Program-made: the position numbers and the translations under genes | NCBI GenBank assembly: GCA_001724265.1 | Contig: MEDY01000114.1 | Span: 1 to 64,000 of the forward strand | DNA: 64,000 nt | Source of the DNA: Rhizaria sp. SCN 62-66 | Taxonomy: Eukaryota | Direction: 5' to 3' | Shown: positions 1,161 to 64,000 of the stretch, in pieces | How the letters are laid out: each line of letters starts with the position of its first letter | Position numbering within the stretch: position 1 is the first letter of the stretch | Notes under the pieces: model-generated | The model's database searches: none | Seen by the model: only the letters and a program-made list of their open reading frames with translations | Told to the model about the DNA's origin: nothing

Positions 1161-4136
1161 TCACTGCTGGCCGACACTGGCAGCGGCGAGCGCGTTGCCA
1201 TAGCGTCCCCAGACGGCCTCGAGCGCGGCGCCCTCGTCCTCGACGCGGTCCAGGTCGCGGTACTGCTTCCAGCCACCGCCCGCGAGCGTGGGCGCGTCGG
1301 CCTGCAGCGGCTTGCACCGCGCGCCGGCCGTCGTCGCCGCGCGCGCGTGCTGCGACGACCATCCCCCGCGGCGCCGCGCCAGCCGCTTGCTCTCGCGCAC
1401 GTCCGCGCCCGACGCGCCCGCGCCCGCGCCCGCGCCGGCGTGGAAGACGTCGCGGTCGCTCTCAACTGCACTGCGGCCCGCCTTGGAGCTGTTACCGCTT
1501 GTGTTGTTGCTCCCCAGCTGCGAGGTCTTGGCACTCGCGCTGTCTGCGAAGACGTACCCGCGGTTCTCGAGGTCCAGGTGGCGGAGCACGTTGAACTCGT
1601 CGACGCCGCGGCGGCCGAGCCGCAGCGCGCCCGCGCGCCCCTGTCCCAGCTGGTGCTGCTGCTGCTGGTGAGGCTGCGCGTCGCCGCCCCGGCCGCCGGC
1701 GCCGGCGCCGGCGCCGGCGCTCGCGCCGCCGCGGCCGGCGCCGGCGCTGCTGCTGTGGCGCCAGGCCGTGCGGTGCGAGGCGGCAAAGCTGGTTGCGTTG
1801 GCGGTGTCGAGGTCGGGCGGGGACGAGAAGAGCGCGCGGCGGCCCGGCGGCAGAAGCTCGTTGCTCTGCTAGCCAACGCTTGCTCGTGGGTGTTCCCAGC
1901 CGCCCTCGCGCTCCGCCAGTCCGGCCAGCGCGCTCCACGCCGCGGGCCGCACCAACGACGGGGGCATGTCCAGCGGCGCGCCCGGCGCGCTGCTCAGCCC
2001 GAGCAGCAGCAGGGCCGCGTCCGCTTCGCGCCCCGAGGCCGTGGAGGAGGACGAGGCGGTGACGACGTTGGCCAGAGACTCGCGCAGCGCCAGCGCAGCG
2101 CCCTGTGGGAGCGAGAGAGGATTACAAAGCAGAGCAAATGGAAGGCGAGATATGAGATTATTGATAAAAATCACAACTATATACTGGAAGATGCTTATTT
2201 AAAAGCTAAATTGAGTGTGCTTGTTAAAAATTCCTGAGTCGTACCTGACTTGAAGAGCGGCAGATGACCTGAGTGGCGGGCGGCTCCGTCGAGAGCGACC
2301 CAGCGCCGCCGGCCGCCGCGCCCGCGCCCGCGCCGGCCCCCGCGCCGGCCCCGGCGCCCGTGGCCGTGCTGTCCCTGGCTGCGAGCACGAGCAGGCGCTT
2401 GGCGCGCCGGGCTGCGAGCGCCTCCTGCCGCGACAGTCCGCGGGGACGCACGGGCTGCGAGAGCGGGCCGGGGGGAACGCCGCCGCAGTCGCCGCCGCAG
2501 CCGCCGCTGGCGCTCGCGCCGGCGCCGGAGCCGGAGCCTGCGCTGGCCCCGCTGTGCGGCGCGCTCCACCCGCGCTCGCGGGCCGCTGCGCGGGAGTTGG
2601 GCGCCGCCGACACGCGCAGCGCGGGCGCGCGCACTGCGGTCGACAGCGCCGCAGCCGACACGGCACCGCGCACGTTGCTGCCGCTCGCGTCGCCAGCGCC
2701 GTGTCGGCCGCCGCGGCCGCTGTTGTGGGCGGAGGTCGCCGGCCGCGCCATGGCGCGTACGAGGGCGCCGCGCACGGGGGAGCCGTTGCGTTGCTGTTGT
2801 TGGGTCTGCGCGAGCGGCGCGCCGTGCGCAGCAGTCGCGCGCCTCTGCTTGCTGCCGCCGCTGGGATGATGCACGCTGAGCCCCATGCGCTCCCGCCGGG
2901 CGGCGGCCTCGGCGGCCACGGCCTCGGCGTGCGCGTCGCCCAGCGCGCTGGCCAGCTCCTCGGGCCGCATGCGTACCGCGGCGGCCGCGGGGGGCAGCGC
3001 GGCCGCCAGCGCCGCCGCCGCCGGGAGCGACCAGCGGCCCGCGCCGTGGCCCGCGGCGGCGCCGGACGCGTGGCCGTGGGTGCCCGCGGCCGTGGCGGCG
3101 GCGCCGGCGGCGGCGTCCGCGGCCAGCGCGAGCAGCACGCTCTGCTGCTGCGGCGGCACGGCCGCGGCAGCGTTGTACGCGCCGCCGCCGACCACCGCGG
3201 CCGCCGCACTACTGCTGGTACTACCGCTGCTGTGGCTGCTGCTGCTGTGGGGGCCGTTGGCGGGGTGGTTGGGGTCGCTGAAGTAGGTGCGCAGCGCGGC
3301 CGGGAGGAAGCCGTTGTGCGCGGAGCCGGTGCCGGTGATGCCAAAGGATCCGTTCCACTCGCGGGGCGCCTCGCCGCGGCCGTGTCCGGCCCTTTCAGTG
3401 CCACCAGAAGCGTTGGCGCTGGCGTTGGCGTTGGCGTGCGCGTGTGTGTGAGTGAAATGGGACATGACGCCCCGGCCGGTGGCGGCGTGCGCGGCCGCGG
3501 CGGACGCGGCGTCGGTCGGCCGCTCCAGTTCCAGCTCCAGCGGGTGCCGGCCAATCCCGGCCGCAGCGCCGCCGCATCTGCCACTGCCGCGCACATTGGC
3601 GCTGGCGGTGCGAGGGTTGTTGTGGTGCGCGCTGAGCGCGGCGGCGGCGGCCGCGTCGGCGTAACACGAGGCGGGGGCGAAGAAGGCCGCGGCGACGGCG
3701 GCGGGCGCGGCGGATGGCAGCGTGCGCGCAGTCTGGTGGCGTGTGGGCGGCGGCGGCGGCGCGGAGAGGTCCCGGTCGCCGTTGTCGCCCCCGCCGGCGG
3801 CGACGATGCTGGTGATGCTTGCGTTGGTGTCCGAGGCCAGGTCGGAGAAGTAGTGGCGCCGCGCGGGCGGCAGCACGAGGTTGCGCTCTGAGGGCGAGGC
3901 GGCTGTGGCGTCCCACGCCTTGCCGCCCGCGCCGGCCGCCGCGCTGGCGCTGACGCTCAAGCCGGGGCTGTCGCTGCGGCAGCGGCTGGCGGCGACGGGC
4001 GGACCCAACGCGCAGTCGCGGTGGGACAGCCGCGACGACGGGGGCTACTTCAGGTGCAGCGTCGACGCCGGCCCCGCGGTCTGCGCGCGTGCGTGATGCT
4101 GGCCATGCGCGGGAGGCCGACTGCTGCAGTCGGCGG

Positions 4137-4171
<35 letters not shown>

Positions 4172-4326
4172 TCGGCGTTGGGATGGTCGCGGCCGTAGTG
4201 GTCCTGTTGGAACGAGACGGACCGCGTGTACAAGTGCTGCGGGACTTCATGTGCCGTCACTGGCGCGCCCGAGGAAAACGCGGGCGCGTAGCGGTACTCG
4301 CCGTAGTTCCAAGCATTCTGCTGCAT
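1161..4326 (-). CDS. Hypothetical low-complexity Ala/Gly/Ser-rich protein, ~1,007 aa; exons 4326-2245 and 2102-1161; two internal TAG codons
   Basis: ORFs 4326-4045 and 4008-2224 share a frame separated by one TAG. ORFs 2174-1869 and 1589-1161 likewise. A phase-0 intron joins the halves; ends at TGA 1163-1161. No domain recognised. Confidence 0.7.
1869..1871 (-). other. In-frame TAG, probable sense codon (Gln)
   Basis: GTT GGC TAG CAG AGC AAC GAG (VG*QSNE); frame stays open for ~235 further codons. Confidence 0.7.
2103..2244 (-). other. Spliceosomal intron, 142 nt
   Basis: CAG|GTACGA...ctcccacAG|GGC, AT-rich island within GC-rich coding DNA, phase 0. Confidence 0.85.
4045..4047 (-). other. 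In-frame TAG, probable sense codon (Gln)
   Basis: CTG AAG TAG CCC CCG TCG (LK*PPS); frame continues for 600 codons to the splice donor. Confidence 0.7.
4138..4167. repeat. (GCT)10 microsatellite encoding poly-Ser on the minus strand
   Basis: Ten perfect GCT units read directly. Confidence 0.9.
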
Positions 4327-4816: not shown

Positions 4817-4862
4817 TTAAGTTGCGCATACCACGCTTGCTCTGACTGAGCGCGCAACTTAA
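4817..4862. repeat. 11-bp perfect inverted repeat, 24-nt spacer, intergenic
   Basis: TTAAGTTGCGC (4817-4827) and GCGCAACTTAA (4852-4862). Confidence 0.8.
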
Positions 4863-7604: not shown

Positions 7605-10600
7605 TTAGACAACATTGTTGCTGAAGACCTCGCGGAAGATCTTAGGCAGCTTGGTTGTGTCTTGGCAAACAAACCCGCGGCCAATGGGCAGTCCCGCAGC
7701 GAGCTTCCCGGCCGTTTCCTCGCCGGCAATGAAGATGGCGAAGGTGCTCACACTGCGCTGCTGGCCCTGACCCTGCTCCTGCTGCTGCGCCGCCGCGGCA
7801 GCGCCATCAACACCGTCGGCGACAAGCTCGCCCTTGCCACCAAGCCGCGGGTCGTCGGACAACACAGCCGCAAGCGTGGCGGGTGCAATGCCGTAACGCT
7901 CGAGGTTCGCGTCCGAGAGCAAGAACACGAAGTAATCGTCCGCTTCCTCCCGGCGCACTTCCTGCATGGCGTGGAACGCGGCCGCGAGCGTCGTATCGCC
8001 GCTGGCGCAGTTGGCAGCGTTCCAGTACATGTGCTCGAGCACCTTCATCTTCTCCTCAACCGTGCGCGGGGGGCGGCCGAAGGGCACGAGCGGAATCCAG
8101 CACGACTCGCCGTCGTGCCCCACCATGCTGTAGTCGTACTTGTGCGCAAAGCCCTGCAGCGCCTCGACCAGCATCAGCACCGTCGCCGCTGTGCGGTCCA
8201 GGCGCCGGTCGTTGCTGTTGAACAGCGCCATCGACTGCGAGATGTCGAGCACAAACCGCAGCCGCTTGGGCTTGCGCTGCACAAGCCCCGCCGTGGGCTC
8301 TTCCAAGCTGCGTCGCTTGTAGATGTTGCGGTCGCCCGTCGCGCCGTCCACGAGCCGGTTCTCGTCCAGCTCGCCGAACGTCTGGTTCTTGAGCCACACG
8401 CGCTCGCGCTCGCGTGCTTCCGCGCCCTCGAGCACGACACGCAGCTGCGCGACCTCGGTCGCCACGGCCGCGTAGAGCCGCTCGTAGACGTCGCGGCCCA
8501 GCGGCGTGCGCTCGTGCGGCGCGAGCGTCTTGGGCACCGCCTGCGCGGCCATGCTGCGTGCCCATGCGACGACGCCGCGGGTGGTCTTGGCGCGCGCCTC
8601 CATGCCCTGCCGCGCAAGGGCAGCCGCGTTCACGGCCGCGGCGGAGCCGGCGCGCGCGGCTGACGACAGCGCGCGCCGCCGCAACGCCAGCAGCGCGGGC
8701 GGCAGGGACTCGTCGTCGTCGTCATCGTTCCCGTCGCCATTGGAGCGCTTGCGGCGGTTGAAACGCATATCGGAGAAGGCAGAGACGGACGCGTTGTTGC
8801 CGCCACCACCACCTCCGCCACCGCCGCCCCCACCGCCGCCGCCGCCGCCGCCGCCGCCACCATCAGCACCTCCGCCGCCACCGCCGCCGCCACCCTCGCC
8901 GCCCGGCCCGTCGCCGGAGTCGGTGCCATACGTGTCGCCGTCGTACTCGCCGCCGCCGCTGCCCGCCGTGTCGTCTGGCGTCGTCGTCGACGCGGACACG
9001 GTGGCCGTGAGCCCCCAGTGGCGCAGCGCGGGGGAGCGCTCCACGTCCTGCGAGAGATTCACGCAGCGCACGAGCCCATCGGGACTGAGCAGCAGCGCGC
9101 GGCCGTCGCGCGTCGGCGCTGCAGCAACAACGCTCGCGGCCGGCAGCGGCGTGACGCCGTCCCAGCCCACCAGCAGCTCGCCCGCGGCGTCGCCGTCGCC
9201 GTCGTTCACGGCGGCGCTGTCGCCGTCCACGGCGCTGTCCTCGGCGTCGCCCGCGGCGAGGTGCGCGGAGATGTGCGGCGGCCGCGTCAGGTACGCCGCG
9301 GGCGCGCGCAGAGGGAACGCGCGCGCGCGGCCAGTCTGCGGCTGCACGAGCTCGAGGAACACCTCGATGCGAGCCTTCTGCGCGCTGTCAGCGGCGATGC
9401 CCGCAGCCGCACTCGCACCGGGATCGCTCGTGGAAGTCGTGTTTTGTGGCTCGTAAGTGAGCAGGTTGGCCCAGAGCCCGGAGTCGCCGGCCCAGATCCC
9501 AGTCTGCCAGAGCGGGCGGCCGCGGGCCACACTGCCAGTCGTGTCCGCGCCAGCCGTCGCAGCCGCTGGAACGATGGAGACGCTGCCCCAGGAGCCGGCG
9601 CCGAGCCCGGAGCCGGGTGCCTGGCCCGCGCGCGGCTGCGAGCCGGGTGCCTGCGCGCCCACGAGCGACTGCGTGAGCGCGTCGGAGGGCGACTGCGCGC
9701 TGGGCGGGGCGCGGGCGGGGCGCGACGTGTTGTACAGGAGCACCGCGGGGGGCTGCGAAAGCACGAGTGCGCCGGCGCCAATCGCCGGCAACTCAGAGCT
9801 CATTTGTGTCTGTGCCTGCGAGGTCTTCGCCTGCGAGGGCAGGTTTGCGTGAGACCGCAACACTGCCAACCGACGTTGCGCAGGAGTCTCGGTGGCGTTG
9901 TCATTCCCATTGGAGCTGTCTGTAAGAAGAAGCGTTGGTGATGCGGGCACTGTGGTAACGCAGACACCAAACACGTCCCCGAGCGAGCCGAAATACCGGA
10001 AGATAGCCGGGTCTGCGACAGCTGCACCGCTATTTGAGCGGCCATTGCTGTCTTTTGCGCTAACTGTGAGCGCAGCACGCGCTGCAGCGACACTTTCAGC
10101 GTTACCACCGTGTGCGCTGTTGGCAGATGCGGACGCGAGCAGAGCCGCGCGCGCGGCGGGCGACAGCGCGGCCGCGCTGGAGCTGGCGGCAAGGCCGGCG
10201 TCGGCAAGCAGTGCGGGTGGCGCAAGCGCGAGAGGCAGCGCCGGCGAGAAAGCCACCGGAGGGTACTGGTAGCTGCCCGTAGACGCGCCGTCGTCGTGGT
10301 AGTCGTTGGCGGCGTTGTTCTTGGCAGGGGTAAGAACAGCCAGAGGCGGGATGACTGTGGTTGCGCATTCGGGGAAGACACGATCCCAGTTGAAGCCGGC
10401 GCCACTGTCTACGCCGTCAGCCGTGGAGGACGAATACAGTCCAGTCAGATTACGCACTGTCTCAATCTCCACACCCGCGCTCGCAACTTGAGTGCTACTG
10501 TCGTCGTTGGAGAGCGCGAGCGTGTAAGGCTCGTCCCTGTCATCGCGCAGCAGCCACAGGGCGCCACTCGCGTCCAGCGGCGCCGCGGACACAAGCCGCA

Positions 10601-13600
10601 AGTGCGCAGGCAGCGGCACATGTGCGCAGCGCGCGGACAGCATCAGCGTCAACGCAGACTCCGACTCTGACTGGTCGTGGGCAGTGAGCTTAGCGTCGAT
10701 CTTAACAAAGGCCAGCGAGGGCGCGCCGCGGGTCACAACAACGGCGACGCCGGGGCAGCGCGCGCGCACCACACGCACGGTGGCTGCGGCGTGTGCACGC
10801 GCGGCGCTGAAGCCCGCGCGCGCTCCCGCGGCTGCGACGGCAGCGCGCGCAGCGGCGGCCCAGGCGTCGGCTGCGGGCGTGCTGTGGTGGTCACACGCGG
10901 AGGACACAAAGGCGCAGGTCTGTGCACGCGCGCGACGGGGCGCGGCGTGCGCAAGAGCGCGTGACAGCGACTGCGCTTGAGAGTGACTGTGAGCAGCAGA
11001 CGCAGTGGCAGCGGGGTGGCTGTGGGTAGCGACGGGGGAGAATGGGAGCGTAAAGGTGGGCACTGGCGCAGCGAGCGGCGAGCTGCTGGTGTTGTTGTTA
11101 TTGTTGTTGCTGCTGTTCGCGTTCAGAGCAGGGCTGACAAACTCCGGCGCGGTGAGCGTGAGCGTCGATGTGAGCGGGTCAAACACAACGGCGATGTTTA
11201 CAGCACCCGCAATCAAAACACTGTTGTCATTATCAACACTGTCCGATGTAGGGGCGTCGGTGGTGTTCTTGCGGTCGATGGTGGCAAGACACGGGAGCAG
11301 TGTGAGAGCGGGGAGGCCGGCGCCAACAGCAAGCATCACAGGATCGACTAAGTGGCTCTCTGACTGACCCTTGGGCAAGACCGAGTGCTCAAACACGGTG
11401 CCTAGCGTCACTGTCGCAGCGACACTGCGCACAGCAGGGCTGGGAGATAATGCGTACGAGTGAGCGTCGTCATTGTGGCAGTTGGTGGCGTCGACAACGG
11501 TCGCAAGCGCGAATGGCAGGCCAGTCGCCAACGCTGCACCCGCCGCCGGAGCCACTACACCGCCCTTGTTGCCGCTAGCAGCGCTGCTGTTAGCGGCGGC
11601 AAGCGCGGCGTCAACGGCGTGGTGCAGCGGTAACACCGACGCGCCAATGCGCTCAGCACTGGTCCCAAAGAAGGGCGCCTCGTACAGCGCGAGTGCAAGC
11701 GGCGCAGTGTGAAGCACGTAAACGAGCCCGTGCACTGCACCCGTGATGCACGAGAAGAAGTCAACCCGCGGACTGACTGCTGTATCGCCCTGGCTGCGGA
11801 TTTCCGGGGGCGCCACGGAGAACACCCCGGAGTCGGCAAACCCGGGCCCGCGGAGGAGGTCCCGCGGCGGCGCGAGCGCGGTGGCGACCAGCCCGACGGC
11901 GCGGCACGCGGGGCGGCGGTACAGGCCCCAGTCGCTAACGCCTAGCCCGGGCCGGCCGGCGAGCGACAGAGCCTGCTGGCCGCCGCCGCCACCGCCGCGG
12001 CCGCTGCTGCCGCTGCTGCTCGCTGCCGTTGTGGAGTCGAGTTTAAAGTCGGCGAGACTGCTAGCACCATCACCAGCGTTGGTATTCGTGTCATTGTTGC
12101 TGCCACTGAGGCTCTCGCTGCTATTGGTGCCAACGCTGTCGCTGTTATTGGCAACCGTGGGCGTAAACGAGGGCGGGTCGAGCAGTGCGGCCGTGGTGGC
12201 CGCGTGCGTGCGGAAGGCGTAGAGCACGAGCGGCTCAGAGTCGACGGCCGCTGTGCGCTCGTCGGAAGTTAAGCCGCGCAGGGTCACCGCGACGGGGGAC
12301 GCCAGTGCAGTGCCCGTTACATCAGTGGCAGCAGGGATGTGCGTGGAGCTAGAGGTAGACGCAGGGCGCAGAGCGCGGGGACGACTAAAAGAAAGAATTA
12401 AAGCGGAACAAATTGAGTGAGCGAGAGCAAAGAAATATGGTCATTCGTAGTCCAGACGATGATGCAGAGTTGTGTTGATATTGTTGCTCAGCCTACCTGT
12501 TGCGTTGCATCTACATGCCGTTGTTGCTGGAGTTAGTGCCGGCAACAGGCGCTGCGCGGAGCACTGTCGGCCCATTGCCTTGCGCGTCGCCGGCAGCGCC
12601 ACCGAGCCTGGCGTTGAGCCTGGGCGCGGGCAGCAGCTCCCCGAAGACGGGCTCCGAGGCCTGCTTGCCCGCCTGCCGCTGCCGGAGCATCATGCGCGCC
12701 GCCGCAGCGGCCTCGCGCTTCGCCGCAGCCTCCTCATCCTCGGCGTCGTCCTGCTCAGCGGCGCCGGCGTCTCCGCGCTGCGCTTTGGCAGCGGCGCGGG
12801 CGGCGCGCGCGGCCGCGACGGGGTCCAGCGCGGCTTCGGCGTCAAAGTCGTGCTCATCAGCCTCCTCCACGCTGCGCGCCGCGATGGCGGGCGGCGGCAG
12901 CGCGATGCCCGCGCCCGCAAAGGCCTCGGCGAGCTTCTGCTGCAACGCGTTGTCGTACGAGTCGAACGACAGAATGCCCTATTCAAAGACAAAGAAAAAC
13001 ACGACGGTACAAACATGAAACATGTTGTTTTAAAATTAAAATTTAATGTACAAGGACAGTTTAGTGATGCAATTTGTGAAGATTAGGGGTTTCTTCATAG
13101 TCGTACCTGAAGCACCGTAGGCAGGGGGTCCAGCGGGTTTGCGTGGAGGTGCCGGGCCGTCTGCACAAGCTCACGCGTGGAGTACGGGTAAGACACAGTG
13201 CCCTGCTCGTTCAGTGCGCGCAGCGCCGCAAAGGCGCGCACGAGGCGGTCGAGCGTATCCTGCGGCAGCGAGGGCGCGTAGGCCTTGAGCAGCGCGGCCT
13301 CGGACGCGGGATCGGGGTTGTCCACGACGTGGCACGCAAAGCAGTCGCCCATCTCGGCGTAGAAGTCGTTGCCCAGGAATGGGTACCCGGGCGGATTGGC
13401 CAGCGCGATCACCTGGAAGCCGCGGTGCACGCGGTACACGCGGCCCGCCGCCGCGTCGCCCGCGGGCGACGACGAGTCGCGGCTGCCCGCGGGCGCCGCG
13501 GCGGCCGTGGGCGCGGCCGCGGCGTCCTCCGCGGTGGCCCAGAGCGGGGAGCGCTCGGTGACAAAGCGGCGGCCGTCGCCGAGCAAGATCTCGCCGTCCT

Positions 13601-16600
13601 CGAGGAGAGACTTGAGCACGCACACGACCTCGGTGGGCGCCTTGTCGACCTCGTCAACCATGAGCACCGAGCCCTGGCGCAGCGCGCGTACGAGCGGCGA
13701 GTCGGCCCACACAACGACGCCGCGGTCCAGCGCGGGCGCGAGCGTGAGCGACTGCACGGTCGAGTCGCGGTGCAGCTGCGTGTACTCGCGCTCGCGCCGC
13801 AGCAGCTGCAGCAACCGATCAGAGAGCTTGTTCTTGCCCACGCCCTGCACGCCGATCAGCAGCAACGGCTCGCGCAGGACGGAGAAGTCTTGCAGCATGT
13901 CGCGCAGTACGGCCACGTGCCGTGGGATGTCGAAGAAGACGACTTCCGGGACTAACTCTGGCTGCGTCGGCCAGTGGCGCCGCGCGCTCACGTCACCGAT
14001 GCTCACTGTGTCCGCCGTCAGAACGATTTTCAGCGGCGCAGTGCTCGTCTTCGCGCCGCTCGCGGACGGCTTAAGTTCAGCGCGTACCACAGCGTCAGGA
14101 CTGACGCTGTCCATAACGCTATTGCCGCTGCTGGCAGCGTCAGCGCTTGCGACTTCGCTCTCGTCGCTGTCCGGCGTGACGCCCAGCCCCGCCAGCGTCG
14201 CCACAAGCAGCTCCCGCTTCGCGGCCGGCGTGAAGCGGAACATGCACACGCGCGCCAGCGTGTCGAACAGCCGCCCCGGAAACGCCGCGGCGCGCTTGGC
14301 GGCGCGCACGAGCTGCCGCAGCGACACTGGGTCCTGCAGCTTCACCAGCGGGTCCGCGGCCAGCTCGTGCACGCGCACGGCGAAGGCCTCAAGCCGCAGC
14401 AGCGTCGCGGGCGGGCAGTGCGGCACGATGGAGCGCAGCAGCGCCGCCACGCGCGGGGGCGCCGCGCCCCACAGCCACGCCGCGCCGGCGTAGCGCGCCG
14501 CCAGCGCGGCGGCCACGGGGTCGGCCTCGGCGTCCTTGCCGGCGGATGCCAGCCCAAGCGCGGCGTTGCGCTCCTTCTCGGCAGCCTGCGTCTGCGCGGC
14601 GATGAGCGCGAGTTCGAGCGCCTCCTCCGACGGCGGTGCAGTGGCCGTGGTGCCGGCGAGCAGCGCGTAGGGCACGAAGGCGAAGTAGCCCGTGACGTCG
14701 TGCGTCAGCCACGGCGCTGTGCGCGACGGCGGGGCCGCCAGCGCGAGCACGCGGAAGCTGGGCGCGATCGCGAACACGCCGCGCGCGTTAAGCTCCGCGG
14801 CCGACACGTCCAGCCGGCGACGGAGCGCGTGGAAGCGGTCCCAGCGCACGAAGCGCGTGCGGTCGAACAGCGCGACCTCGCGGTCCTCCAGCAGTCGGCC
14901 CAGTGCGGCGAGCGTGCCGGGCGACAGGCGGTGCACGCCGTCCAGCACGACGAGGCGGCCGCGGCGCAGCGCGGTAACCAGCGGAGAATCCAGCCAGACG
15001 GTTTCGCCGGCGGGGGACGTGGAGCGGCGCTGCAGCAGGTCGCGCGCGGACATGTCTTTGTACAGGAACATCGTCTCCACGGGCGCGAAGCCCAGCGCGC
15101 GGGCGAAAAGTGCGGCCAGGTAGGACTTGCCCTCGCCCTTGGTGCCAACGAGACAGAGGTCGCGGCCGAGCGCGTGCAGCCGCAGCAGCGACGCGAGCGC
15201 CAGCCGCTGCAGCCGGCCGCCCGCGAGCGACAACGCAGACTGCTGCGGGTCGCGGTCGGCCGACGCGAAGGGCGCAGGCCACGGGGCCGCGGACAGGCCG
15301 GCGCCGGCGAGCGCGGACACCATCACGCTGCCGTGAGCGCTTGACTCTGCTGCAGAGTTGTCGGCGTTCGCGCGGTTGAGAATCGCATTCGCGCTGCCGG
15401 CGCTGTTTTCGTTGAGGTACGCGGGCACAAAGGTGACCGTGAGCACGGTGCCCTCGGTGGCGTCCGTGGACGCAGCCAGCAGCCGGCCCAGTTCGTCCTC
15501 GCCGTCGCAGTCCGCGAGCGCCAGCGGCCCCGCAGACTCGGCGACAGAAGAGGCAGAAGCAGCAGAAGCGGCAGCAGTTGCAGAGTCTTCGGCGGCGGCG
15601 CAGGGCACGATCGGCTGGAAGGCCGGGCAGGCGCCAGCGGTCACGCCCGACAGCGCCAGCTTCCGCCAGCCCTCGACACTCCCGTTAGCCGCACCCACAG
15701 TCGCGGTGGCCGCTGCAGTCGGCGCGGTGACTGAGGGCAGAGCAAGGCGCGGCGGCGCGAAAGTGGCCGCGAGTCCATGTGGCGTGGCGAAAGGCGCTAC
15801 GCTCACACCGACAACGTCATACTGCTCGCAAACAATGCTGGAGCTCACGATCGCCGCGGAATTCCCATTCGCAGTCTTCACATCACTGTGATTGCTCTTC
15901 ACGTTGATATTGTTGGCATTGTCGCGCTGCCACTGCGTCTTGGCGAGCCTTGCGGCCTCGGCCTCGACGACGGCGACGGCCTCGGCATCGGTGACCGTGA
16001 GCGTCCACGGGTATCCGGCGTGCAGCGCCGCGGGCAGCGACAAGCGCGGAAACACGGCGGCGCCCGCGGCCGCAAGCAGCAGCGCGGGCAACGACGGCAG
16101 CGGCAGGTGCGAGTACGCCAAGTGCGACGCCGACACGCCGGCGGCCGTCGCGGCGCGCGCCGTAACCGCCGACAGCGCGCCGACAAAGCGGACCAGCGCC
16201 AGGGCCACCCAGCTCGCGCGCGCGCAGTCGCGGCACGGTGCAGCCGCGGCAGTCGCCGCAGATGGCGGCGGCAACAACAGCAGCGCATGCGGCAGCGGCG
16301 CGCACTTACACACCGTCGTCTCCGCTGTCAAAGTGCGGAGAGCATGCTTGTAGGCCGTGTAGAGCAGCGCGGTGAGCGCGCGTGGGGGCGGGAGGTCGAC
16401 GCGGCGGCCCTGAAAGCGCGACCGCAGCGGCGGGTCCAGCGGGTTGCCCGGGAACGGCGGCGCGGGGGCACCGATGGCGATGACGCGGAAGCGCGGGTGC
16501 GTGGGGACGAGCCGTCCCGCCAGCGCGGCCGCGGCGGCGGCGTCTTCGCTGCTTTCTGCGTCGGTATCGGTATTACTCGCGCTGTTGGCGACAGACAAAC

Positions 16601-17582
16601 CGGCGGCAGAGGCGAGTTTGGCCAGCCGAGTCTGCGCAGCAGCTGTGCTGCTATCGTTGGCCTGAGCCTGGGCTGCGGCTGCCTTGGCCGCGGCCTTACT
16701 CTTCTGCTGCTGCGCGTGGGCTTTGAGAATGCTTTGATAGCGCGCGGGCGCGACGAGGAAGCGGCCATCTTCGAGCTGCATCTCGCGGTTCTCCAGCAGG
16801 TTGTTGAGGATCGGCAGCACGTTGCGCTCAGCGCGCTCCATGCCTTCCAGCACGAGTAGGCGCCCGCGCAGCGCCGCAGCGACAACGGGCGAGTCCGAGA
16901 ACACGGAGCTGCCGCCGGCGACAAGCTCGCGGCGCTGCTTAAGGTCACCCTCGGTGGTGTCGCGCGTCAGCGCCACGTACTCGACCTCGCGGCCGGTAAG
17001 CGCGGCGAAGTGCACGGCGAGCCAGCGGCGCTGCGGGCCCGTGCCCAGCAGGAAGGCGTCGTTGCCCAGCGCGTCCTTCTGCAGCAGCCAGCGCAGGTGC
17101 GCGGCGGCCCACGCATCGTGCGGGGCCGCTGCGGCCAACAGCGCGGCCAGGTCGGGTCGCCGCAGTGTCGCGGTCCTCAGCACTGGGTCCACGACGCGGG
17201 TGACGCGGGTGAGCGCGGCGGGCGAGAAGGCGGCTGCAGGGCACTGGCCCAGCGCCGGGAACGGGACGGAGAAGTGTGAGGTGCGCGGCGCACGAGCCAG
17301 CGCGTCTGCGTCTGCGTCTTCGACAGCGCTAGAGTCGGGCTCGTCGCTGCTGCTACTGCTGGTGCTGTCGTGGATGTGTTGCTGGGCGTTGAGGGCTGCG
17401 AGAGAGCAGAACACAGCGTTCAGGGCGCCAATGGGCACCAGTTCAGGCGCCGCAGGGTGTTCTAGCTGCTGGAAGTCCTGTGATGCAATGGTCGCTTCCT
17501 TCGACGCCGCGGCAGGCGGCGGCGCAGATCCGGACGTCTGTTTTGGAATCACCACCAACTGCCTGGCTGGCTGGGATGACAT
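7605..17582 (-). CDS. VWA8: VWA8 (tandem MoxR/dynein-like AAA+ modules plus C-terminal vWA domain), ~3,245 aa; exons 17582-13107, 12978-12497, 12384-7605
   Basis: EYVALTRDTTEGDLKQRREL, VLEGMERAERNVLPILNNLLENREMQLEDGRFL, Walker A GTKGEGKS and GVQGVGKN, YPYSTRELV, WLKNQTFGELDENRLVDGATG, KPKRLRFVLDISQSM (MIDAS DxSxS), FLLSDANLERYGI. Two frame-preserving introns; TAA stop. Confidence 0.93.
8798..8898 (-). repeat. GGN-rich trinucleotide tract encoding poly-Gly in VWA8
   Basis: Imperfect (CCG/CCA)n on the + strand; translation GEGGGGGGGGGADGGGG... Confidence 0.85.
12385..12496 (-). other. Spliceosomal intron 2 (VWA8), 112 nt
   Basis: AG|GTAGGC...tttcttttAG|T, phase 2, restores the frame of the 12287 ORF. 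An alternative in-phase donor AT|GTAGAT lies at 12514. Confidence 0.7.
12511..12513 (-). other. In-frame TAG in VWA8 exon 2 (ambiguous)
   Basis: GGC ATG TAG ATG CAA CGC (GM*MQR). Exonic if donor 12496 is used, intronic if donor 12514 is used. Confidence 0.5.
12979..13106 (-). other. Spliceosomal intron 1 (VWA8), 128 nt
   Basis: CAG|GTACGA...ctttgaatAG|GGC, phase 0; splice gives VLQ-GILSFDSYD, resembling the VWA8 FDFDSY motif. Confidence 0.9.
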
Positions 17583-50500: not shown

Positions 50501-53500
50501 AGCGACAGCTCGTCCGACTCGCCGTTCCTGCTGTACCTGCTCGCGCTGTGCCTCGCCGCCCGCGGCCTGCGCGCCCCCGCGCGCCGCCTGCTGTGCCGCT
50601 CGCTGACGCTCTTCCCGCTTAATCTTTCGGCCTGGCACCTGCTGCTCGCGCTCGCCGACCCGCCCCCGCTGGCCTCCCGCTCCCCCGCCCCGCCCCATAG
50701 TAGCCCTAACAGCGGACTCACGGCCGACCCGGCGACGGGCTTCGCCGCGGCGCCGCTGGCGGTGCCGGCGCACTGGGCGCTGCTACTGGCGCTGGCGCAG
50801 CACGTCGGCCGCGGGCTCGCGGTCCCGCCGCTGGCCGCCGCGGTGGCGGGCAGCGCCGTGCCGCTGCCGCTGCTCTCGATGCTCACGGGCGCCACTGCAG
50901 ACGAGCTCCTCGTCCCCGCCACCGGGGATAACGACGATGCCGACGGTGCAAACGGCGGCAAGGGGGCGGTGCGCGCGGACGCCTGGCCGTATCTCACTGC
51001 GCCGGGTGCGCTGCAGGCGGTGCTGCAGTGCATGGCCGCGCCCGCGCCCGACGAGAGCGTGCTCGCGCCCAACAACAGTACGTATATCTTGCACTTAATC
51101 AAAGACTCACTCAAATAGCAATTAACTTGGCGTCGCTCAATTCGCATCGTTGTATGCAATCGCTTGATTACCTGTATTCTGTTTTCTAACATGCTTCTCG
51201 CAATTCCGCTTACTTTCTTGCACTTCTTCAACAGAGCGCTGCCCGCTGTGGGGCGCATTCACCTCGGCACCGCCGCAGCTGCCGCGCGCGAGCCCCGCGG
51301 CGCTGCTGCCGGTGCCGCAGCACCACCCAGCCTCCGCGCTGCTGTCGTGCTGGGTCGCGCTGCTGCCCTGGTCGCTGCCGGCCCGCGCGCTGCGCCTGTG
51401 GCTCACTCTGCGCGGCGCAGACACGGACCCCGCGACGCTGGCGCCCATCCAGGACGGCGTCGCGCTCGCCGACCGCTCGACCTCGAAGTTTAGCCGCGTC
51501 GCCGAGCAGAAGCTAAGCCGCGGCGGTAACAAGCTAGGCGGTCACCGCGCTCGCGTGCCGCTGTCGTCGCTGCCGCTCGCCCCCGCCACGGTGCCGTTTT
51601 TCCCCGCCCCGCATCTGCCGCAGTACGTGCAGTCACTGCTCGCCGCCCACAGTCCCTCCATCGCCGGCGCCGCCGCTGCCCACGGTCACTCTGCGGGCGC
51701 GAGCGGCGTGGGCGGCGCGACGACGCTGTGCGCCGTGGCGCTGGCCGCAGTAAGCGCGACGCCGCTGCTGCTGCACCTGCACTCGCGCGCGCTGTCGACG
51801 GCGACCGTGGGCCGGCTCGACGACGCGGGGCTCGCCGCTGCGGTCACCGATGCCGCCGCCGCCGCCGCGGAGGCCGTCGCTGAGGCCGCCGAGGCCGCGC
51901 GCGCTCAGCTGCAGCAGACAGAGGCCGACGCTAACGCCGCCGCTAGCTCTGCAGAATATGCGCAGGCGCATGCACAGGCGCTGGTTGAGGATGCGCGGGA
52001 GGACGTTGCGGTAAGTGAGCGTGCGCTGCAGATTGTGACGGCCGCCGAGAACACCAAGAACGTCGGCTTCGGCGCCGGTGCCGCTGCGGGCGCGTCTAAG
52101 GGAGAGACTGTGGCCATGGACCCGGCCCTTACACTGGACACTTACAGCAACATCGGGCCTAGTACCTCGGGTGACAACAGCAGCAATGCCCTGAGTGTAA
52201 GTGCCTTCGCGACCGTGACGTACCCCTTAGACGGCCCCTCCGCGCTGAGCCTGTGTCCGCTCACGGCGCCCCTTGTCGCCCAGCAGGCCCTCAGCGGCCC
52301 CGTGCCAGCACCGCAGGTGGTGACCGAGCCGGTGTACCGCGCGGCCGCCGCGGGCGCCGGCGTGGGCGCGGCTGCGGGCGGCGAGCTGGACTGGCAATGG
52401 GGCGCTGCGCGCTGGGGCCGCGCCGTCGTTGACGTTGTCGCCGAACACATGGCGCGCACAAACCCCATCAGGTACGGCAACGCAAATGTTAGTTCTCTCT
52501 ATCGATGTAACGAACCTATCAATTTTACGTGCGTCTGTTTGCGCTGAATTACTGACTCAATCTTTGTTATTTTCTTGCCTGTTTGTTTGTTTGTTTATTT
52601 ATTTCGTGCTTGCAGCCCCGAGGGCCACTTAGCCGCAGCGCTACAGTCGCTCCTGGCGTCGCCGCTGCTGCCGCAGCGCCTGCCGCGCGTGCACTCGGCC
52701 GCGGCGGCCGCGCTGGAGCTGGGCCTGGGCTCGGCCTTGTCGTGGCGTCTGCTCGCGCTGTCAATCGACGATGCCGCCGCGCCCGTGCTCGAGGCCTACG
52801 CCAAGGCCGCGCAGTGCGCGCCGCTAGACTACGGGTACGCTCCACTACGAAACACCTTGAAAACATGCTGCGACTGTGTATCACGCGCACTCTGAGATGT
52901 TGCTTTGTTTGTCTTGTCACAGCATTTTGAAGACATCACTCATCTAGCTATTTGTTCTGTTTTGCTTTGTTTTTCTCAGTGCGCACCTGGCCGCGTCGGC
53001 CTTCTGCGCCGCGCTGACCATGTGGCCGCGCGCGCTGTACCACGCGCGCTCCGCCGCCGCGCTTGCGCCCTACGAGTCGGAGGTCTGGCTCAGCGTCGCG
53101 CACTGCGTCAGCGGGATGCGGTACGTAACAACAAATGCATTGCTTTACTGCATGGCTTATATCCTATTGTTAGCCTAGCCTCTGAATCGCGATATGTTTC
53201 ATCAATTCTATTTCCTCACCCTTCTTCTTCGAACACATGTTGCCCCCACCACGACCTCCCCCCGCAGCGGCCCCGCGGCTTCGGTGCCGTTCCTGACGCG
53301 CGGCCTGCAGCTGGGCGACCGCTCGCTGGCGCTGTCGTCGGCGCTACTCACGGCGGCGCGATGCTCGCTCTCGAGTGCCGCCGTGCTCGACGCCGTGCAG
53401 CGCGTCGAGGCGCGCTTCCCGTCCTGGCCCGCGCTGCTGGCGCACCCCGTTGGCCGCCGCGCCTTTGCGCTGCACTGCGCCTACGCGCTTCAGTCCGGGG

Positions 53501-53757
53501 ATGCGACCACGGCCGCCGAGCTCGCCGCCGCGCTCGCCGCAGACGCCGCGGGCGCGTACGCCGGCGTCGGCCGCGACCTGGCCCCCGCGGCGGTGGCCAT
53601 GGCGCTCGTGCAGCAGCGCGCCGCGCGCAAGCAGGAGTTGCTGCAGCAACAGGAGCAAGAACAGGAACAAGACCAGCAAGTCGCTGAGAACGGTGACGCT
53701 GAAGCCGCTGGCGACGGGGATGGGGATGGCGAAGAGGGCGACGGGATGTTCTTTTAA
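44544..53757 (+). CDS. CDC23: Divergent APC8/CDC23-like TPR protein with ~1,500-aa low-complexity N-terminal extension, ~2,762 aa; exons 44544-49398, 49573-50216, 50375-51077, 51235-52471, 52616-52834, 52980-53120, 53268-53757; internal TAG at 44865
   Basis: Six GT-AG introns chain in frame. Segments resemble APC8 in the right order: LRAHGLSRAAAALASL; EPRRAAWLL; FVLLFAQFMCGE; NPELPSL; DSPFLLYLLALCL...SLTLFPLNLSAWHLL; VLEAYAKAAQCAPLDYGA; ALYHARSAAALAPYESEVWLSVAHC. TAA stop. Similarity judged by eye. Confidence 0.7.
44865..44867 (+). other. In-frame TAG in CDC23-like gene, probable sense codon (Gln)
   Basis: QQQQHQQQQAAS*DEDEDD; the acidic/Gln-rich composition is the same on both sides and the frame continues for ~1,510 codons. 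Confidence 0.75.
45396..47050 (+). repeat. Cluster of GCYCACRGTCAC copies encoding AHGH/AHSH repeats
   Basis: Perfect copies at 45396, 45411, 46260, 46278, 46356, 46374, 46389, 46815, 46932, 46992, plus an antisense copy at 46576. Confidence 0.85.
49399..49572 (+). other. Intron 1 (CDC23-like), 174 nt
   Basis: G|GTACGA...ctcttcacAG|CG, phase 1. Confidence 0.85.
50217..50374 (+). other. Intron 2 (CDC23-like), 158 nt
   Basis: GAG|GTCCGT...ctccccctcAG|CCG, phase 0. Confidence 0.75.
51078..51234 (+). other. Intron 3 (CDC23-like), 157 nt
   Basis: A|GTACGT...cttcttcaacAG|AG, phase 1. Confidence 0.8.
52472..52615 (+). other. Intron 4 (CDC23-like), 144 nt
   Basis: AG|GTACGG...gtgcttgcAG|C, phase 2. 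Confidence 0.85.
52835..52979 (+). other. Intron 5 (CDC23-like), 145 nt
   Basis: GG|GTACGC...ttttctcAG|T, phase 2. Confidence 0.85.
53121..53267 (+). other. Intron 6 (CDC23-like), 147 nt
   Basis: CG|GTACGT...cccccgcAG|C, phase 2. Confidence 0.85.
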
Positions 53758-55849: not shown

Positions 55850-56572
55850 ATGCTTGCTCGTACCCTCAAGCGCGTCTCCACCGCTGTCCCCGCGGTGTCG
55901 TCCGTCGCTGCGCGCACCTTCGCCTCCGGCGGCCACCCTTCGATCAAGACCAACTACGCTGACCCCAAGCTCCAGGACTACTACGCGCAGACCGCGAAGC
56001 TCGGCGGTGTTGACCAGTACAACACCACTGACGGCCTTCTCGAGAAGAACATGCTCGACTCGTCCTACCCCGACACCCGCCCCATGCACTACATCGCCCT
56101 GAACTCCACCAAGGCCATGTACGCCGGCCTCGCCCGCGCCGGTGTGTGCAAGCTCGTCGCCCAGATGTCCGCCTCGGCCGACGTCCTCGCGCTCGCCTCG
56201 ATCGAGGTCAACATCTCCGGCTTTGCCGAGGGCACTAACACCACGGTCAAGTGGCGCGGCAAGCCCATCTTCATCAAGCACCGCACTCCCGCCGAGATCG
56301 CGCGCGCTAAGGAGGACGACAAGGCCGTGCTCCGCGACCAGGAGGCCGACTCTGCCCGCGTCGTCGACGACAAGTGGCTCATCGTCATCGGCATCTGCAC
56401 CCACCTCGGCTGCGTCCCCATCCCCGGCGCCGGCGAGTACCCCGGTGGCTTCTTCTGCCCCTGCCACGGCTCCCACTACGACTCCTCGGGCCGCATCCGC
56501 AAGGGCCCCGCCCCGCTCAACCTCGAGGTCCCCGCCTACAAGATGAACGGCGACATGCTCACTATCGGCTAA
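55850..56572 (+). CDS. UQCRFS1: Cytochrome bc1 complex Rieske iron-sulfur subunit, mitochondrial, 240 aa
   Basis: Arg/Ser/Ala-rich presequence, [11 protein letters not shown] hinge, [21 protein letters not shown] and CPCHGSHYD 2Fe-2S boxes, [18 protein letters not shown] stop. Confidence 0.98.
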
Positions 56573-59108: not shown

Positions 59109-62100
59109 ATGAGCTACCCGCACACGCAGCCGAGCCTTGCGTCGGCGATGAACACGTCTACCTCGTTTGAGCTGGACCCCAGCAACCGCGTGCGCTTCGC
59201 CCCCACGGACCAGGTCTACCCCATCCCGTCCGCGCTCAACGCCTCCTCCGTCAGCAACTCCAGCTTCAGCGGTGGCGGCGGCGGCGCGTACGGGGTAAAC
59301 GCGAGTTACGGCGCCGCTGCGCTTCCCGTGCCGACCGGCGCGCTTGCTCAGCAGCAGCAGCAGCCACAGGGCTACTACCCCGCCCCGCGTCCCCCGCTCC
59401 CTCTGTCCAACTCTGCGGCGACCGCGGGTATGCCGCCGGCGCTGACGCGGCCGCAGACTGGGCTGCTGCCGGTGCCCATCGGCATCATGGCGGCACCCTT
59501 TGCGCTCCCGGGCGCGGGACCGGTCCCCAACCCCGCCAAGGCGCCCCTGGCCTCGACCACGTACAACGCCAACGCAAACGCCAACTACAACAACTACAAC
59601 ATGCAGCCGCAGCCTCAGCCTCAGGCGCAGTATTACTACAACCAGGCGCAGCCGCAGTATCCGCAGCAACAGCAGTATCCGTAGCACCAGCAGCCGCAGC
59701 TGCTGCCCCAGCCCTCCGTCCCCGCGCCCCCCTCTGGCGGCAGTGGGGTGGTTGTCATGGGGGGGCGCCTCGTGCGAGTGCCGGTGCCCGCAGGGGCAGT
59801 GGCGCTGCAGCAACAGCAGCAGCAGCAGCAGCAACAGGCGATGGCTCAACAGCAAATGATGTGGCAACAGCAGCAGCAGCAACAACAACAACAACAACAG
59901 CTTCAACAACAGCAGCTGCAGCAGCAGCAGCAGCAGCAGCAGCAGTACTTACAGAATGTAAGTGACGTGTCTTTCATCGCCCCCGCCCCGGCCTCCGCGC
60001 CATGGGAGGCCGACGCCGCCGCGCCCAACGCCTTTGCTGACTCAGCCGCCGCCGCGGCTCACGGTCACTCTGCTGCAAAGCAGCAGGCGCACTACGTGGG
60101 GCCGGACGGGGCAGCGCTGTATAACGACAACAACCACGGCAACACTAGCAGCGGAAACGACCCCGAGAATGAACCCACCGCCGGCGCCACCCGCGCCGTC
60201 TCCCTCTTCTCCAAACCTCAGGCGCAGTCGCACGCTCCGTCGAAACCGCCACCGCCGCCCGCATCCCGGACGGGCAACCCGTTCCACTCGCTGCACCAGG
60301 CGCTGCGCCCCGCGCTCACCGCGGTCGCGCCGATGCGGCTGCCGGCCGCGGCTATGGCGTTTCTGCGCCGCGCAGCCGCGCGCGCATTGCTGCCCGCGCC
60401 TTCCTTCGCCGCCGACGCCGCTACTATGGGCGGGGCGGGGGCCGCGGGCGCGCTCACGCCCTACTACCTGCACATTGACGCTGTGACCGGGCTGCGGCTC
60501 TTCAGCGCGATGCTCCGCGCCTCAGCCGCCACGGCAGCGACCAACTCCACTGCCGCGGGCGGCGCCGGCGCCACCGCCGCTGCGGCCGCGGCGGCGGGGG
60601 CGCTGCGGGGCACCCTTAAGCCGGAGTTTCTGTACTGGCGGCTTAACTTGTCGCTCTACTCACAACGGCACCGCACCTTTTTCGGGCGCACCTGGGAGAG
60701 CGACGAGTACTGCGTCGCCACTTACCCAGAGGTGCTTACATCCCCGTCCCACACTGCAAGCCCTTACCCTGCGGTTGGCGGCCAGTTCGGCGCGGATGTA
60801 GGTACCCCCGGCGGCGATGTAAGCGCCCCGCCGCACACGGCGCGCCTCCCGCCGATCGGCGTCTACTACTACAGCGACATCCACTCGTCGCAGTGCTTCG
60901 CCGTCGCCGAGGTCGTGCTCACGGTCCGCCTCCCCGGCGCTGCCCCCGCCAGCGTCGCGCTGGGCTGGGCCCCGCTGGCCGCCTTCGCACCCGTCGGCGG
61001 GCACGCCGGCGCCGGCCCCGCCACCGCGCTCCCGGGCGGCGCGCAGGCGGGCGGCTTCCCTTCAATGAGCGCCGGCGCTGGCGCTGAGGACCCCAACGCG
61101 AGCGCGCTGCTCGCCAACGCCGCGGGGGGCGCCGGGGGCGCGTTCGTGGGGTTCGGCGCGCTGCCTGACGTCGCTGACCACCTAGACACGATCTCTTACG
61201 CCGGCAACCGCGCCGCCGCCGCCTTCTCGGCCCTCAGCAGCAACGGCAACGCGAACGCGAGCCTGGACATGTCTTTCAACACCGGCGCGGCCGCGGGCGG
61301 TGGCGGCTTGGCTTCCGCGCCGCCGCGCATGACGACTGTGCCCCTGTACCGCGGCTCTCCTCGCGCGTTGCTCTTCGCGCACAACCCGGTCCCGCGCGCG
61401 CTCAACTCGGGCGGCGGCGCGAACTTGGGCAGCTCCGCTCACCCCGTCGACGCCTACGGCAACCCCCTCCCGGGCGCCGGCGAGGTCATCGCCCTCAACA
61501 GCAACGGCGGCGGCGCGGCGCAGTCCGGCGCCGGCGGGGTGACTCTGGCGCAGCACGCGTCGTGGGACACGACGTTCCTGCACGCGCACGACATGCGGCT
61601 CAGCTTCCGCGTCTTCCGCTGCTCGGCGCTGCTGCGGGTTGCCCATCTGTTTCGGCCCAACGAGTTTGTCGCCGCCGACGGCTCCGCGCGGCTCGCGGGC
61701 CTGCCCCCCGTGCTCCAGCTCCACGCCCCCGCCCCCGCCCATAGCACTGAGGCGGGGGACGCCACCGCCGCCGCGTCTGCGCTGTCGCTGCTGCCTGGTG
61801 TGCTGCCGCCGCCGACGCACCTGGCGGCATTCGCGCGCGCCGTGCCGCTCACCCACCTGCGCGTGCGCGCGCCGCGGCTGGCGCTGCCGGCGCAGCTCGA
61901 GCCGCGGCTGCTGGCGGTGCTGCACCACCACCGCGCGCTGTTCGTCACCGCGCCCTCTGCGCGCGAGCGGCCCGTCGTCGTGGCGCGCGCGCTGCGCCTG
62001 GGGCTGCACAACGGCCGCCGCTTCGTGCACCTCCCCGCGCGCCTCCCGCTGACCGTGGCCGCGGCCAGCAGCGGCGACGTCGCGGGCACCGGCGCAGCCG

Positions 62101-63638
62101 CCTGGGACCCCGTGACCGTGAGCGCCGCGCGCAGCCGCGGAGACATCACGGCCCGCGGTAACGGACAGCAACAGGGACGGCTTAACTTCGAGAGCGAGCT
62201 CGCCAACGCGAATAACAACTTCAACAGCGGCGGCAGCGGCGGCATGGCGACTGCGCGCGGTCTGCGCGGCCCCGGCTCCGGCCTCGACAACCTCGCCGCT
62301 CTCGCGAGCGCTGCCGGCGCTAGCGCGGCCGGCGCCGCTGGTGCAGGCGCTGGCGCACTGCCAGTGGAGGACGGCGGCGTGGTCGCCGCTGCCGGCGCGT
62401 CCACATCGTTCCCTGCCTCGTACACCAATAGCGGGAACAGCAGCAATGGCGGGGGCGGCAGCATGGCGGACGGCAACTATTACGCCGACTCGCCCGCGCT
62501 CGACTTCAACACCGGCACGAACAATCCCTTGAATGGCCACGCTGTGACCGCGGCGGGCGGCGGGTTCACGGTGCTGCAGTGCGAGGGCGTCAACGCCGTG
62601 GTCGAGGGCGTGCGCTGCTCGCTGGCCGAGCCCGAGGCCGTGGCGCTCGTCGCCGAGCTTCAGTACGACGTCGCCTGGGTCGCCGAGGCCGCCGAGGTGA
62701 GCACTTACACGTCAAAGTACGGCGGCGCCGCGGGCGGCGCGGGCAACTCCAACGCGCTCATGGCCGCGGCGGCCGCGGGCGGGGCCTTAGGTGCCAGCGC
62801 CGCTCTGGCCGGCGGCGGCGGCGGCGGCGGCGAGGGCGAGACCGCGGGGGGCTACCCGGTAACGACCATCACGATCGCCTGGGGCATCCAGCTCATCACC
62901 ACGCGCAACATGAATGCCAACACCAACCCTGGCTCTGGCGCGAGCTCTGGCGCTAGTTCTGGCGGTGTCAAGACGGGAGCCGGCCCGGTGTGCGTGGCGC
63001 TGCCGCTGGACGACTCTGTGGTCGACATCCCACTGCACCGCGGGCCCTGCCGCTCGCTGTCGGGCGCGCGCACCTACGGCTACTCGACGCTGTTCGAGGC
63101 GCTGCACCCGCTCGTCCGCCGCGGCGTTGTGCTGCGCGCAGCGTTTCAGTCGCCCGCGCACGCCGCCATCGCCGCCGCCGCCGCCGGGGAGCTGCCCGCG
63201 CCCGCGGCCGGCGCCGCTGCGACGCGTGACAGCGGCGATGGCGGCGACGGGGTGCCTGTGGGCAGCGAGGGTGCGTGGCAGGGCGCCGACGCCGACGGGC
63301 AGTACCGTGGCATTGCCGCGCTGCGCAAGCCCAACAGCGCGGGCGACGACAACAACAACAACAACAACAAGAACAGCACTGTTGACAGTGCTCGGGCCAG
63401 TGGCAGTACTGGCGGTGTGTTGAAGGCTGCCGAGGTCGAGGTGGGCGCTGCGGCCGCGGCCGCACGCGCTCAGGCCGTTAGCGCTGCCCACGGCCACGGG
63501 TTGCAAATCGCGCTTGGCCCCGCCGCCGCGGCCGGGAACGGCGGCACGGTCACGCACGCGGCGAATAACAACGCTGCGAACGCGCTCGGGGCCAAGAGTG
63601 TCACGAAGACGCAGCGGCGCCGTCAACCGCAGGCACAG

Positions 63639-63670
<32 letters not shown>

Positions 63671-64000
63671 ACAACAGCCGATGCAGCGGGGCGTGAGACT
63701 TGATGCCGGTAACAGCGGCAACAGCGGCGACGGCGGCGTGAACGACAGCATGCTGGGCGGCAATCTTTCTGGCATCTACCCCAATGTGCACAACAGCTAC
63801 AGCAACGACAACAACTCGCTGCAGCTCTCCGCTGACAACAACCGCAACCAACAGCAGCAGCAGCAGCAGCAGCAGCAGAACGCCAACAGCAGCAACCTGT
63901 GGCCCACGCCCAACACCAGCAGCGCCAACAACAACAACAACAACGCCGCCGCCGCCGCTCCAGCCCCGATGGCTGCGCCCGCGTACTCGCACGTCCCCGT
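59109..64000 (+). CDS. NPHP4: Nephrocystin-4 (ciliary transition zone), 5' part, runs off window end; internal TAG at 59682
   Basis: Manual translation beyond the TAG: WRLNLSLYSQRHRTFFGRTWES, YYYSDIHSSQCFAVAEVVL, PLYRGSPRALL, HLFRPNEFV, ARALRLGLHNGRRFV. These match the NPHP4 motifs FFGRTW, LYxGxPRALL and LRxGxHNG. Confidence 0.88.
59682..59684 (+). other. In-frame TAG in NPHP4, probable sense codon (Gln)
   Basis: CAG TAT CCG CAG CAA CAG CAG TAT CCG TAG CAC CAG CAG CCG CAG; TAG occupies the CAG position of a local repeat. Confidence 0.85.
59808..59945 (+). repeat. CAG/CAA poly-Gln tracts in the NPHP4 N-terminus
   Basis: Q10 tract, then a 27-codon tract interrupted by two Leu codons. Confidence 0.9.

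Follow-up and report, generated by a model that had tools for sequence, protein, structure and literature searches.

The 64-kb stretch of DNA analyzed here (positions 1 to 64,000 of contig MEDY01000114.1, Rhizaria sp. SCN 62-66; the whole stretch is called the window below) is a eukaryotic nuclear contig of ~68% GC with zero N, in which several long genes carry TAG codons within their reading frames. Our analysis indicates that UAG is probably a sense codon in this organism, with UAA (mainly) and UGA as terminators. Specifically, six UAGs lie inside four long, otherwise intact reading frames, and a contig from an RNA library crosses one of them, at position 30193. An earlier note, made from the letters of this DNA, had proposed the same reading on the basis of seven in-frame TAGs. 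All seven TAGs are present at the coordinates it gave and six of them are in frame, so that UAG as a sense codon beside UAA and UGA stops is the best-supported reading on six sites; the seventh, at 12511, coincides in part with a candidate splice donor, and the reading does not depend on it.

In-frame TAG codons in four long genes

Eight genes were modelled with splicing, namely AB, a double-PX gene, a VWA8-like AAA_5 gene, DNA-PKcs, IJ, K, Rieske and N. Their 17,616 codons contain six TAGs in frame and neither a TAA nor a TGA, and the reading frame is kept across every splice joint with no frameshift required, as the earlier note had claimed; thus in-frame TAA and TGA do not occur at rates comparable to TAG (0 and 0 vs 6). 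The six TAGs are spread over AB, DNA-PKcs, IJ and N, and the remaining four modelled genes are TAG-free. Two sites are on the minus strand in gene AB, at 1869..1871 (codon 772 of 1007) and 4045..4047 (codon 94). The plus strand holds the other four: 18472..18474 (codon 153) and 30193..30195 (codon 4060, between the CC1-2 and CC3 regions) in DNA-PKcs, 44865..44867 (codon 108) in gene IJ, and 59682..59684 (codon 192, within a Q-rich tract) in gene N. Gene AB (4326..1161, minus strand; 1,007 codons, TGA end) consists of exons 4326-2245 and 2102-1161 separated by an intron at 2103-2244 (GTACGA...CACAG), and its product is of low complexity without a Pfam match. Gene IJ (44544..53757, plus strand) has seven exons, six AT-rich introns, 2,762 codons and a TAA end, with no function assigned to it, and gene N (59109..63998, plus strand; 1,630 codons) is a partial gene of low complexity that leaves the window.

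The coding signal runs on past each of the six TAGs. The GC content at third codon positions (GC3) in the frame of the TAG stays high on both flanks, at 0.63-0.96, with 0.96 reached downstream of TAG 4045. We also scored codon usage by log-odds, with the score trained on TAG-free conserved genes only. On both flanks of all six TAGs, the positive forward frame was that of the TAG itself (+0.15 to +0.45 bits/codon), the other two forward frames and both intergenic controls were negative, and no reverse frame exceeded +0.18. These two measures bear out the claim that frame and coding composition continue beyond the TAGs. Furthermore, the next in-frame ATG lies ~190 codons downstream of TAG 4045 in AB and ~214 codons downstream of TAG 44865 in IJ, and the coding signal spans both intervals, so that a downstream restart cannot explain these sites. 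Two further TAGs within TAG-read-through open reading frames (ORFs), at 17872 and 58959, fall in AT-rich 5' non-coding sequence.

Among the nine gene ends checked, eight are TAA, one is TGA and none is TAG, in agreement with the earlier note down to the positions. The codons that follow the six TAGs are CAG, CCC, GCC, ACC, GAC and CAC (+4 bases C, C, G, A, G and C), again as it had listed, and no shared readthrough motif was found in them, the downstream sequence being read as codons only.

The clearest single case is DNA-PKcs (18016..42747, plus strand; 8,179 codons), which consists of an exon at 18016-42017 and a FATC exon at 42210-42747 with a TAA end, joined across an intron at 42018-42209 (GTACGT...CTCAG) that contains a TAA. 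The Pfam matches are in order across TAG 30193, with DNA-PKcs_N and CC1-2 before it, CC3, CC5 and the PI3/PI4 kinase domain after it, and FATC in the last exon. When the two ORFs were compared with solved structures, the one upstream of the TAG had human DNA-PKcs as its sole family match (residues 896-995, E=6e-6), and the one downstream matched human DNA-PKcs at residues 3895-4044 (E=4e-52). Judged by this domain order and the two matches, TAG 30193 interrupts one single DNA-PKcs gene. A reading as two proteins was rejected, with zero spacer between the two parts, a common frame, and no ATG for ~80 codons after the TAG. The predicted product is ~2 times as long as the human protein (4,128 residues), with low-complexity inserts of Ala, Ser, Gly and Gln between the recognisable domains. 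Public gene calls file its N-terminus as two proteins, of 152 aa (18016-18471) and 3,871 aa (18583 onward), split at TAG 18472.

We compared the window with public data over positions 12200-32199, using the contigs (not raw reads) of four runs. This stretch covers two of the six in-frame TAGs; sites 1869, 4045, 44865 and 59682 lie outside it. None of the four runs had a variant listed at 18472, at 30193 or at any other TAG of this stretch. DNA contigs of runs X2 and X3 span both positions with 0 differences, and a contig at 16609-20055 covers 18472. Note that X2 and X3 are filed under different studies and years, yet their contig pieces and depths are identical, and they were counted as one data set. 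From another study, a contig of the polyA metatranscriptome X5 (30104-30506) matches the window all the way across TAG 30193, without a single difference or gap. The depth of X5 was zero in 1 of 30 bins, the one holding the intergenic gap (17583-18015) that separates DNA-PKcs from the divergently oriented VWA8-like gene, and a depth that is missing just there fits real RNA. RNA splice joints at the predicted introns were not listed among the contigs of the four runs over this stretch.

The seventh TAG (12511..12513, minus strand) is in the VWA8-like gene (7605..17582, minus strand), modelled with three exons and 3,239 codons, no in-frame stop and a TAA end. It overlaps the candidate donor of an intron at 12385-12514, which reads GTAGAT, the TAG following the first G. 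A second TAG lies five codons on, and the sequence after TAG 12511 is AT-rich and scores as non-coding in every frame. Removal of this GT-AG intron gives the open 3,239-codon coding sequence without TAG 12511; if a second possible donor, 18 nt further downstream, were used instead, the TAG would stay in the reading frame. The site is thus ambiguous, is unneeded as a sense codon and gives no evidence for recoding, and it is probably removed with the predicted intron. Since TAG 12511 can leave in this way, the interrupted genes number four and not five as the earlier note had counted.

A metagenome scan with the VWA8-like protein returned this organism again, in two short contigs identical to each other (L001 and L004), and a distant relative (L002, which equals L003). 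The VWA8-like protein of L003 (53% GC) is 57-61% identical to that of the window in conserved parts, and it is encoded at L003:9761-17839 by one unbroken ORF of 2,693 codons with a TGA end, whereas the gene of the window has two introns. The neighbour of this gene in L003 is a different divergent gene, not DNA-PKcs, and synteny is lost. The three long ORFs of L003, 6,452 codons in all, are free of in-frame TAGs and have TGA or TAA as their last codon. L003 has no homologue of the flanking DNA-PKcs and is uninformative on the TAG sites.

Placement of the organism and known UAG-only codes

The gene for the mitochondrial Rieske iron-sulfur protein (55850..56572, plus strand; TAA end) served as a marker for phylogeny. 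The best matches of its product were metagenome proteins with 81% and 69% identity. In a maximum-likelihood tree of 36 sequences, the protein of the window fell in a 16-member clade (ultrafast bootstrap 100, SH-aLRT 98) that also holds a UniRef protein with the label Lygus hesperus and, from EukProt, the sequence of the sainouroid cercozoan Guttulinopsis vulgaris; a quick 120-row Rieske tree agreed. This placement is that of one gene and holds at the level of the clade, not of the branches within it. Panek et al. 2017 (PMC5304391) showed that the Lygus transcriptome contains contaminating sequences of a sainouroid cercozoan, which is known as "rhizarian exLh", and from its position in the tree, the Lygus-labelled Rieske protein probably belongs to exLh. 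The organism of the window thus appears, from its Rieske protein, to be related to the sainouroid lineage that holds exLh. Sainouroids are reported to be abundant and active in wastewater plants (PMC8827150), which matches the labels of the public runs in which this contig recurs, namely bioreactor, wastewater and activated sludge.

Other leads on the origin of the DNA did not alter this picture. The Protein Atlas gave no taxonomic lead from the VWA8-like AAA protein or the orphan protein K. A kinetoplastid origin was rejected on the grounds that spliceosomal introns are common and that the Rieske protein groups elsewhere, and a bacterial PKS-like origin was rejected given the introns and the DNA-PKcs, COMM and PX domains. 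The earlier note had called the organism flagellated, for which the window offers no support; the AAA_5 protein (Pfam AAA_5 x3, E=3.9e-79) is VWA8-like, not a dynein.

In exLh, UAG encodes Leu: the published account gives 384 in-frame UAGs in 71 genes, with UAA as the stop in 56 and UGA in 15, and its eRF1 is changed at the position that corresponds to Leu69 of the human protein (PMC5304391). The window resembles exLh as described there in that only UAG occurs in frame, genes end in UAA and much less often in UGA (eight and one of the nine ends checked here), and UAG is avoided in conserved or highly expressed genes; the two apparently belong to the same broad lineage. They differ in that UAG is a major Leu codon in exLh (PMC5304391), whereas it accounts here for 6 of 17,616 codons with none in a conserved block. 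The base composition also differs, the ~68% GC of this organism standing against 37.7% in Rosculus vilicus, given as the only published sainouroid genome (PMC10770858). The earlier note had suggested that this may be an independent reassignment, with an organism that fits none of the UAG=Gln cases well. This suggestion is weakened by the Rieske clade shared with Guttulinopsis and the Lygus-labelled protein, by which the present case may belong to, or adjoin, a lineage already known to be reassigned.

Outside this lineage, a likeness exists to the fornicate Iotanema spirale, which keeps UAA and UGA as stops and uses UAG sparingly as sense (~8% of its Gln codons). However, Iotanema is an unrelated anaerobic metamonad with UAG as Gln, whereas the present organism has a mitochondrial Rieske protein (both points on Iotanema as given in PMC5304391). 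UAG-only codes are also listed for phyllopharyngeans (Leu, Gln), Protocruzia tuzeti (Gln) and Scotinosphaera (Ser) (PMC11687900). These ciliate and green algal codes share with the window a difference in meaning between UAG and UAA, but they belong to other lineages, and the residue was assigned there from many conserved sites. In published accounts of Condylostoma, karyorelicts and Blastocrithidia (UAA), a stop codon is likewise read as sense within genes, and from the 5' skew of the sites described below a positional effect is conceivable here; in those organisms the same codon also ends genes, whereas TAG ends 0 of 9 genes in the window and TAA and TGA are never in frame. Outside ciliates, nuclear codes that give UAG another meaning than UAA are rare; the uncultured rhizarian (Leu), Iotanema (Gln) and Scotinosphaera (Ser) are the cases listed (PMC11687900). 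A second UAG reassignment in rhizarians or stramenopiles was not found in the literature beyond the 2017 paper, supplements not being covered. UAG-only sense codes are therefore already known, and the organism appears to be related to one such case.

Competing explanations and the identity of the residue

Several observations weigh against UAG being a sense codon here. The support from public data comes from assembled contigs, which lose rare variants, and from two of the six sites. From the codon usage observed, 66-68% of all single-base changes to a stop are expected to produce TAG, with CAG as the chief precursor, and six TAGs out of six have a P of about 0.08-0.10 under random nonsense mutation, which is weakly informative. 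With 6 occurrences, TAG is 3-5-fold less frequent than the least used ordinary codons (AAA 19, TAT 22, TTA 26), and the two off-frames (35 and 75) each hold 6-12 times as many TAGs as the coding frame; were it freely synonymous with CAG, ~80 TAGs would be predicted from the TTG/CTG ratio of 106/744. None of the six lies within a conserved domain or block, and TAG is absent from the conserved genes of the window, so that no site reveals which residue, or that any, is inserted. Four of the six are found among the first 200 codons of a gene (codon 94 in AB, 153 in DNA-PKcs, 108 in IJ and 192 in N), a region that makes up 9.1% of the modelled codons (post hoc binomial P=0.0009), and such clustering would also be expected of early nonsense changes that are tolerated. 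The nine gene ends are a small sample, and all but one of the sampled transcripts of G. vulgaris, a relative whose code is presumably standard, are reported to end in UAA (PMC5304391); given this preference, the absence of TAG ends may reflect a habit of the lineage. tRNA genes were not found in the 64-kb window by tRNA and Rfam scans, and eRF1 is absent from the window. The statistical arguments of the earlier note were thus weaker than it had made them, by the P value above and the possible habit of ending genes in UAA.

These observations have to be set against three other explanations. In one, which we consider unlikely, UAG would be a poorly recognised stop without any reassignment, and near-cognate tRNAs (e.g., Gln-CUG, Tyr, Trp) would read through it in dispensable genes of low expression. 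The extreme rarity of TAG, its limitation to non-conserved regions and its clustering in early codons, where premature stops cost least, are in line with such leaky termination, as is the failure to see a tRNA(CUA), though the window is without any tRNA gene. However, DNA-PKcs has two TAGs in one otherwise open frame of 8,179 codons, so that hardly any full-length protein would be made if readthrough were low at each of them; neither the lack of a common motif in the following codons nor the absence of TAG from the nine gene ends is what leaky termination would lead one to expect. True premature stops, whether recent nonsense mutations, decaying genes or alleles segregating in a metagenome consensus, would draw on the TAG-rich nonsense spectrum, on the two sites in or beside poly-Q tracts and on the nature of the affected genes, which are long, of low complexity and perhaps dispensable. 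We judge them improbable: six nonsense changes would have accumulated without one frameshift, TAA or TGA in the modelled codons, and the same letters recur in the X2/X3 DNA contigs (another sample and year) and in the RNA-library contig, and the two sites that could be compared show no variant. Moreover, off-frame stops make up about 1.6-2% of codons, and that frames of 1,007-8,179 codons stay open despite this rate points to selection on the whole frame and argues against decaying genes.

A further explanation is that the TAGs never reach the ribosome, through unconventional short GC-rich introns or RNA editing. The organism does splice, with 10 introns found in the models and TAG 12511 probably removed by one of them. 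However, the recognised introns are 128-192 nt long with 31-46% GC, and no GTA[CAT]G donor was found within 250 nt upstream (<=250 nt) of any of the six TAGs, where the local GC is exon-like (0.47-0.97). Together with the collinearity of the polyA RNA-library contig over TAG 30193, this makes removal or editing very hard to credit.

For UAG as a probable sense codon, a mechanism may be proposed by analogy with published UAG-only codes. UAG would be decoded by a tRNA with the anticodon CUA, pairing with UAG and not UAA, and eRF1 would have a weakened recognition of UAG; it is argued that no anticodon other than CUA can read UAG without also reading UAA (PMC5304391). Given the rarity of UAG, its avoidance of conserved regions and its 5' skew, decoding may be recent or inefficient, with UAG accepted chiefly near the start of long proteins, in regions that are under little constraint and probably disordered. 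Termination near the start would cost little, and termination far downstream would cost much. A more specific version, which is possible but doubtful, is an early-stage code change in which a GC-rich relative of the sainouroids dropped UAG as a stop and then captured it with a new tRNA(CUA), independently of exLh or with another residue, e.g., Gln. Such a change could have started from the sainouroid habit of ending nearly all genes in UAA, with UAG placed so far only in unconstrained, 5'-proximal parts of long genes.

The earlier note had named Gln as the likely residue, which goes further than the sites allow, as all six TAGs are outside conserved blocks and our searches found no orthologue spanning a TAG. 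Read as Gln, TAG would make up 0.8% of the Gln codons (6 of 725). The two TAG sites in or beside Q tracts are compatible with an origin from CAG, and such an origin is expected under Gln decoding and plain nonsense mutation alike. Word-index searches with the DNA-PKcs N-terminus and the TAG 30193 region yielded no orthologue spanning a TAG, but the search with the TAG 30193 region missed even the window's own protein, so that these blanks say little. An exhaustive HMMER search for orthologues across the TAG returned only the window's two own fragments and one marginal, unrelated 213-aa match away from the TAG. By rough odds that are a judgement rather than a measurement, Gln is our leading guess at a little under an even chance, Leu comes second as a plausible candidate, and some other residue is less likely again.

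Gene structure of the window and implications

Beside the eight spliced models, which include a double-PX protein and the orphan protein of gene K, the window contains two genes that were recognised as ORFs only, one with a COMM domain and one that is NDUFA2-like. The 10 introns are all GT-AG and AT-rich, in contrast to exons of ~70% GC. Their donor is strikingly uniform, GTACG standing at the start of eight of the ten (2103-2244, 12979-13106, 42018-42209, 49399-49572, 51078-51234, 52472-52615, 52835-52979 and 53121-53267), and the remaining two begin with GTCCGT and GTAGAT. The window also holds eight copies of the 11-mer CTCACGGTCAC, at 15433, 15991, 46357, 46375, 46816, 46993, 60058 and 62112 on both strands, vs 0.05 expected (0 of 100 shuffles reached 8). 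Read in coding frames, it encodes AHGHS, a peptide found repeatedly in IJ and N although these two proteins are unrelated. A short DNA element present in dispersed copies, or a hotspot of mutation, might account for it.

Gene callers that use the standard code already fragment genes of this organism, as seen for the N-terminus of DNA-PKcs. The authors of the exLh study wrote that identification of its tRNA had to await a genome (PMC5304391). The window is genomic DNA of a possible exLh relative that recurs in wastewater and bioreactor runs, and the full set of its contigs could yield the tRNA(CUA) and eRF1. The low frequency of UAG and its 5' skew may illustrate the appearance of a reassignment that is still early or works inefficiently, and if the early-stage reading is true, this organism would offer a natural snapshot of the codon-capture route.

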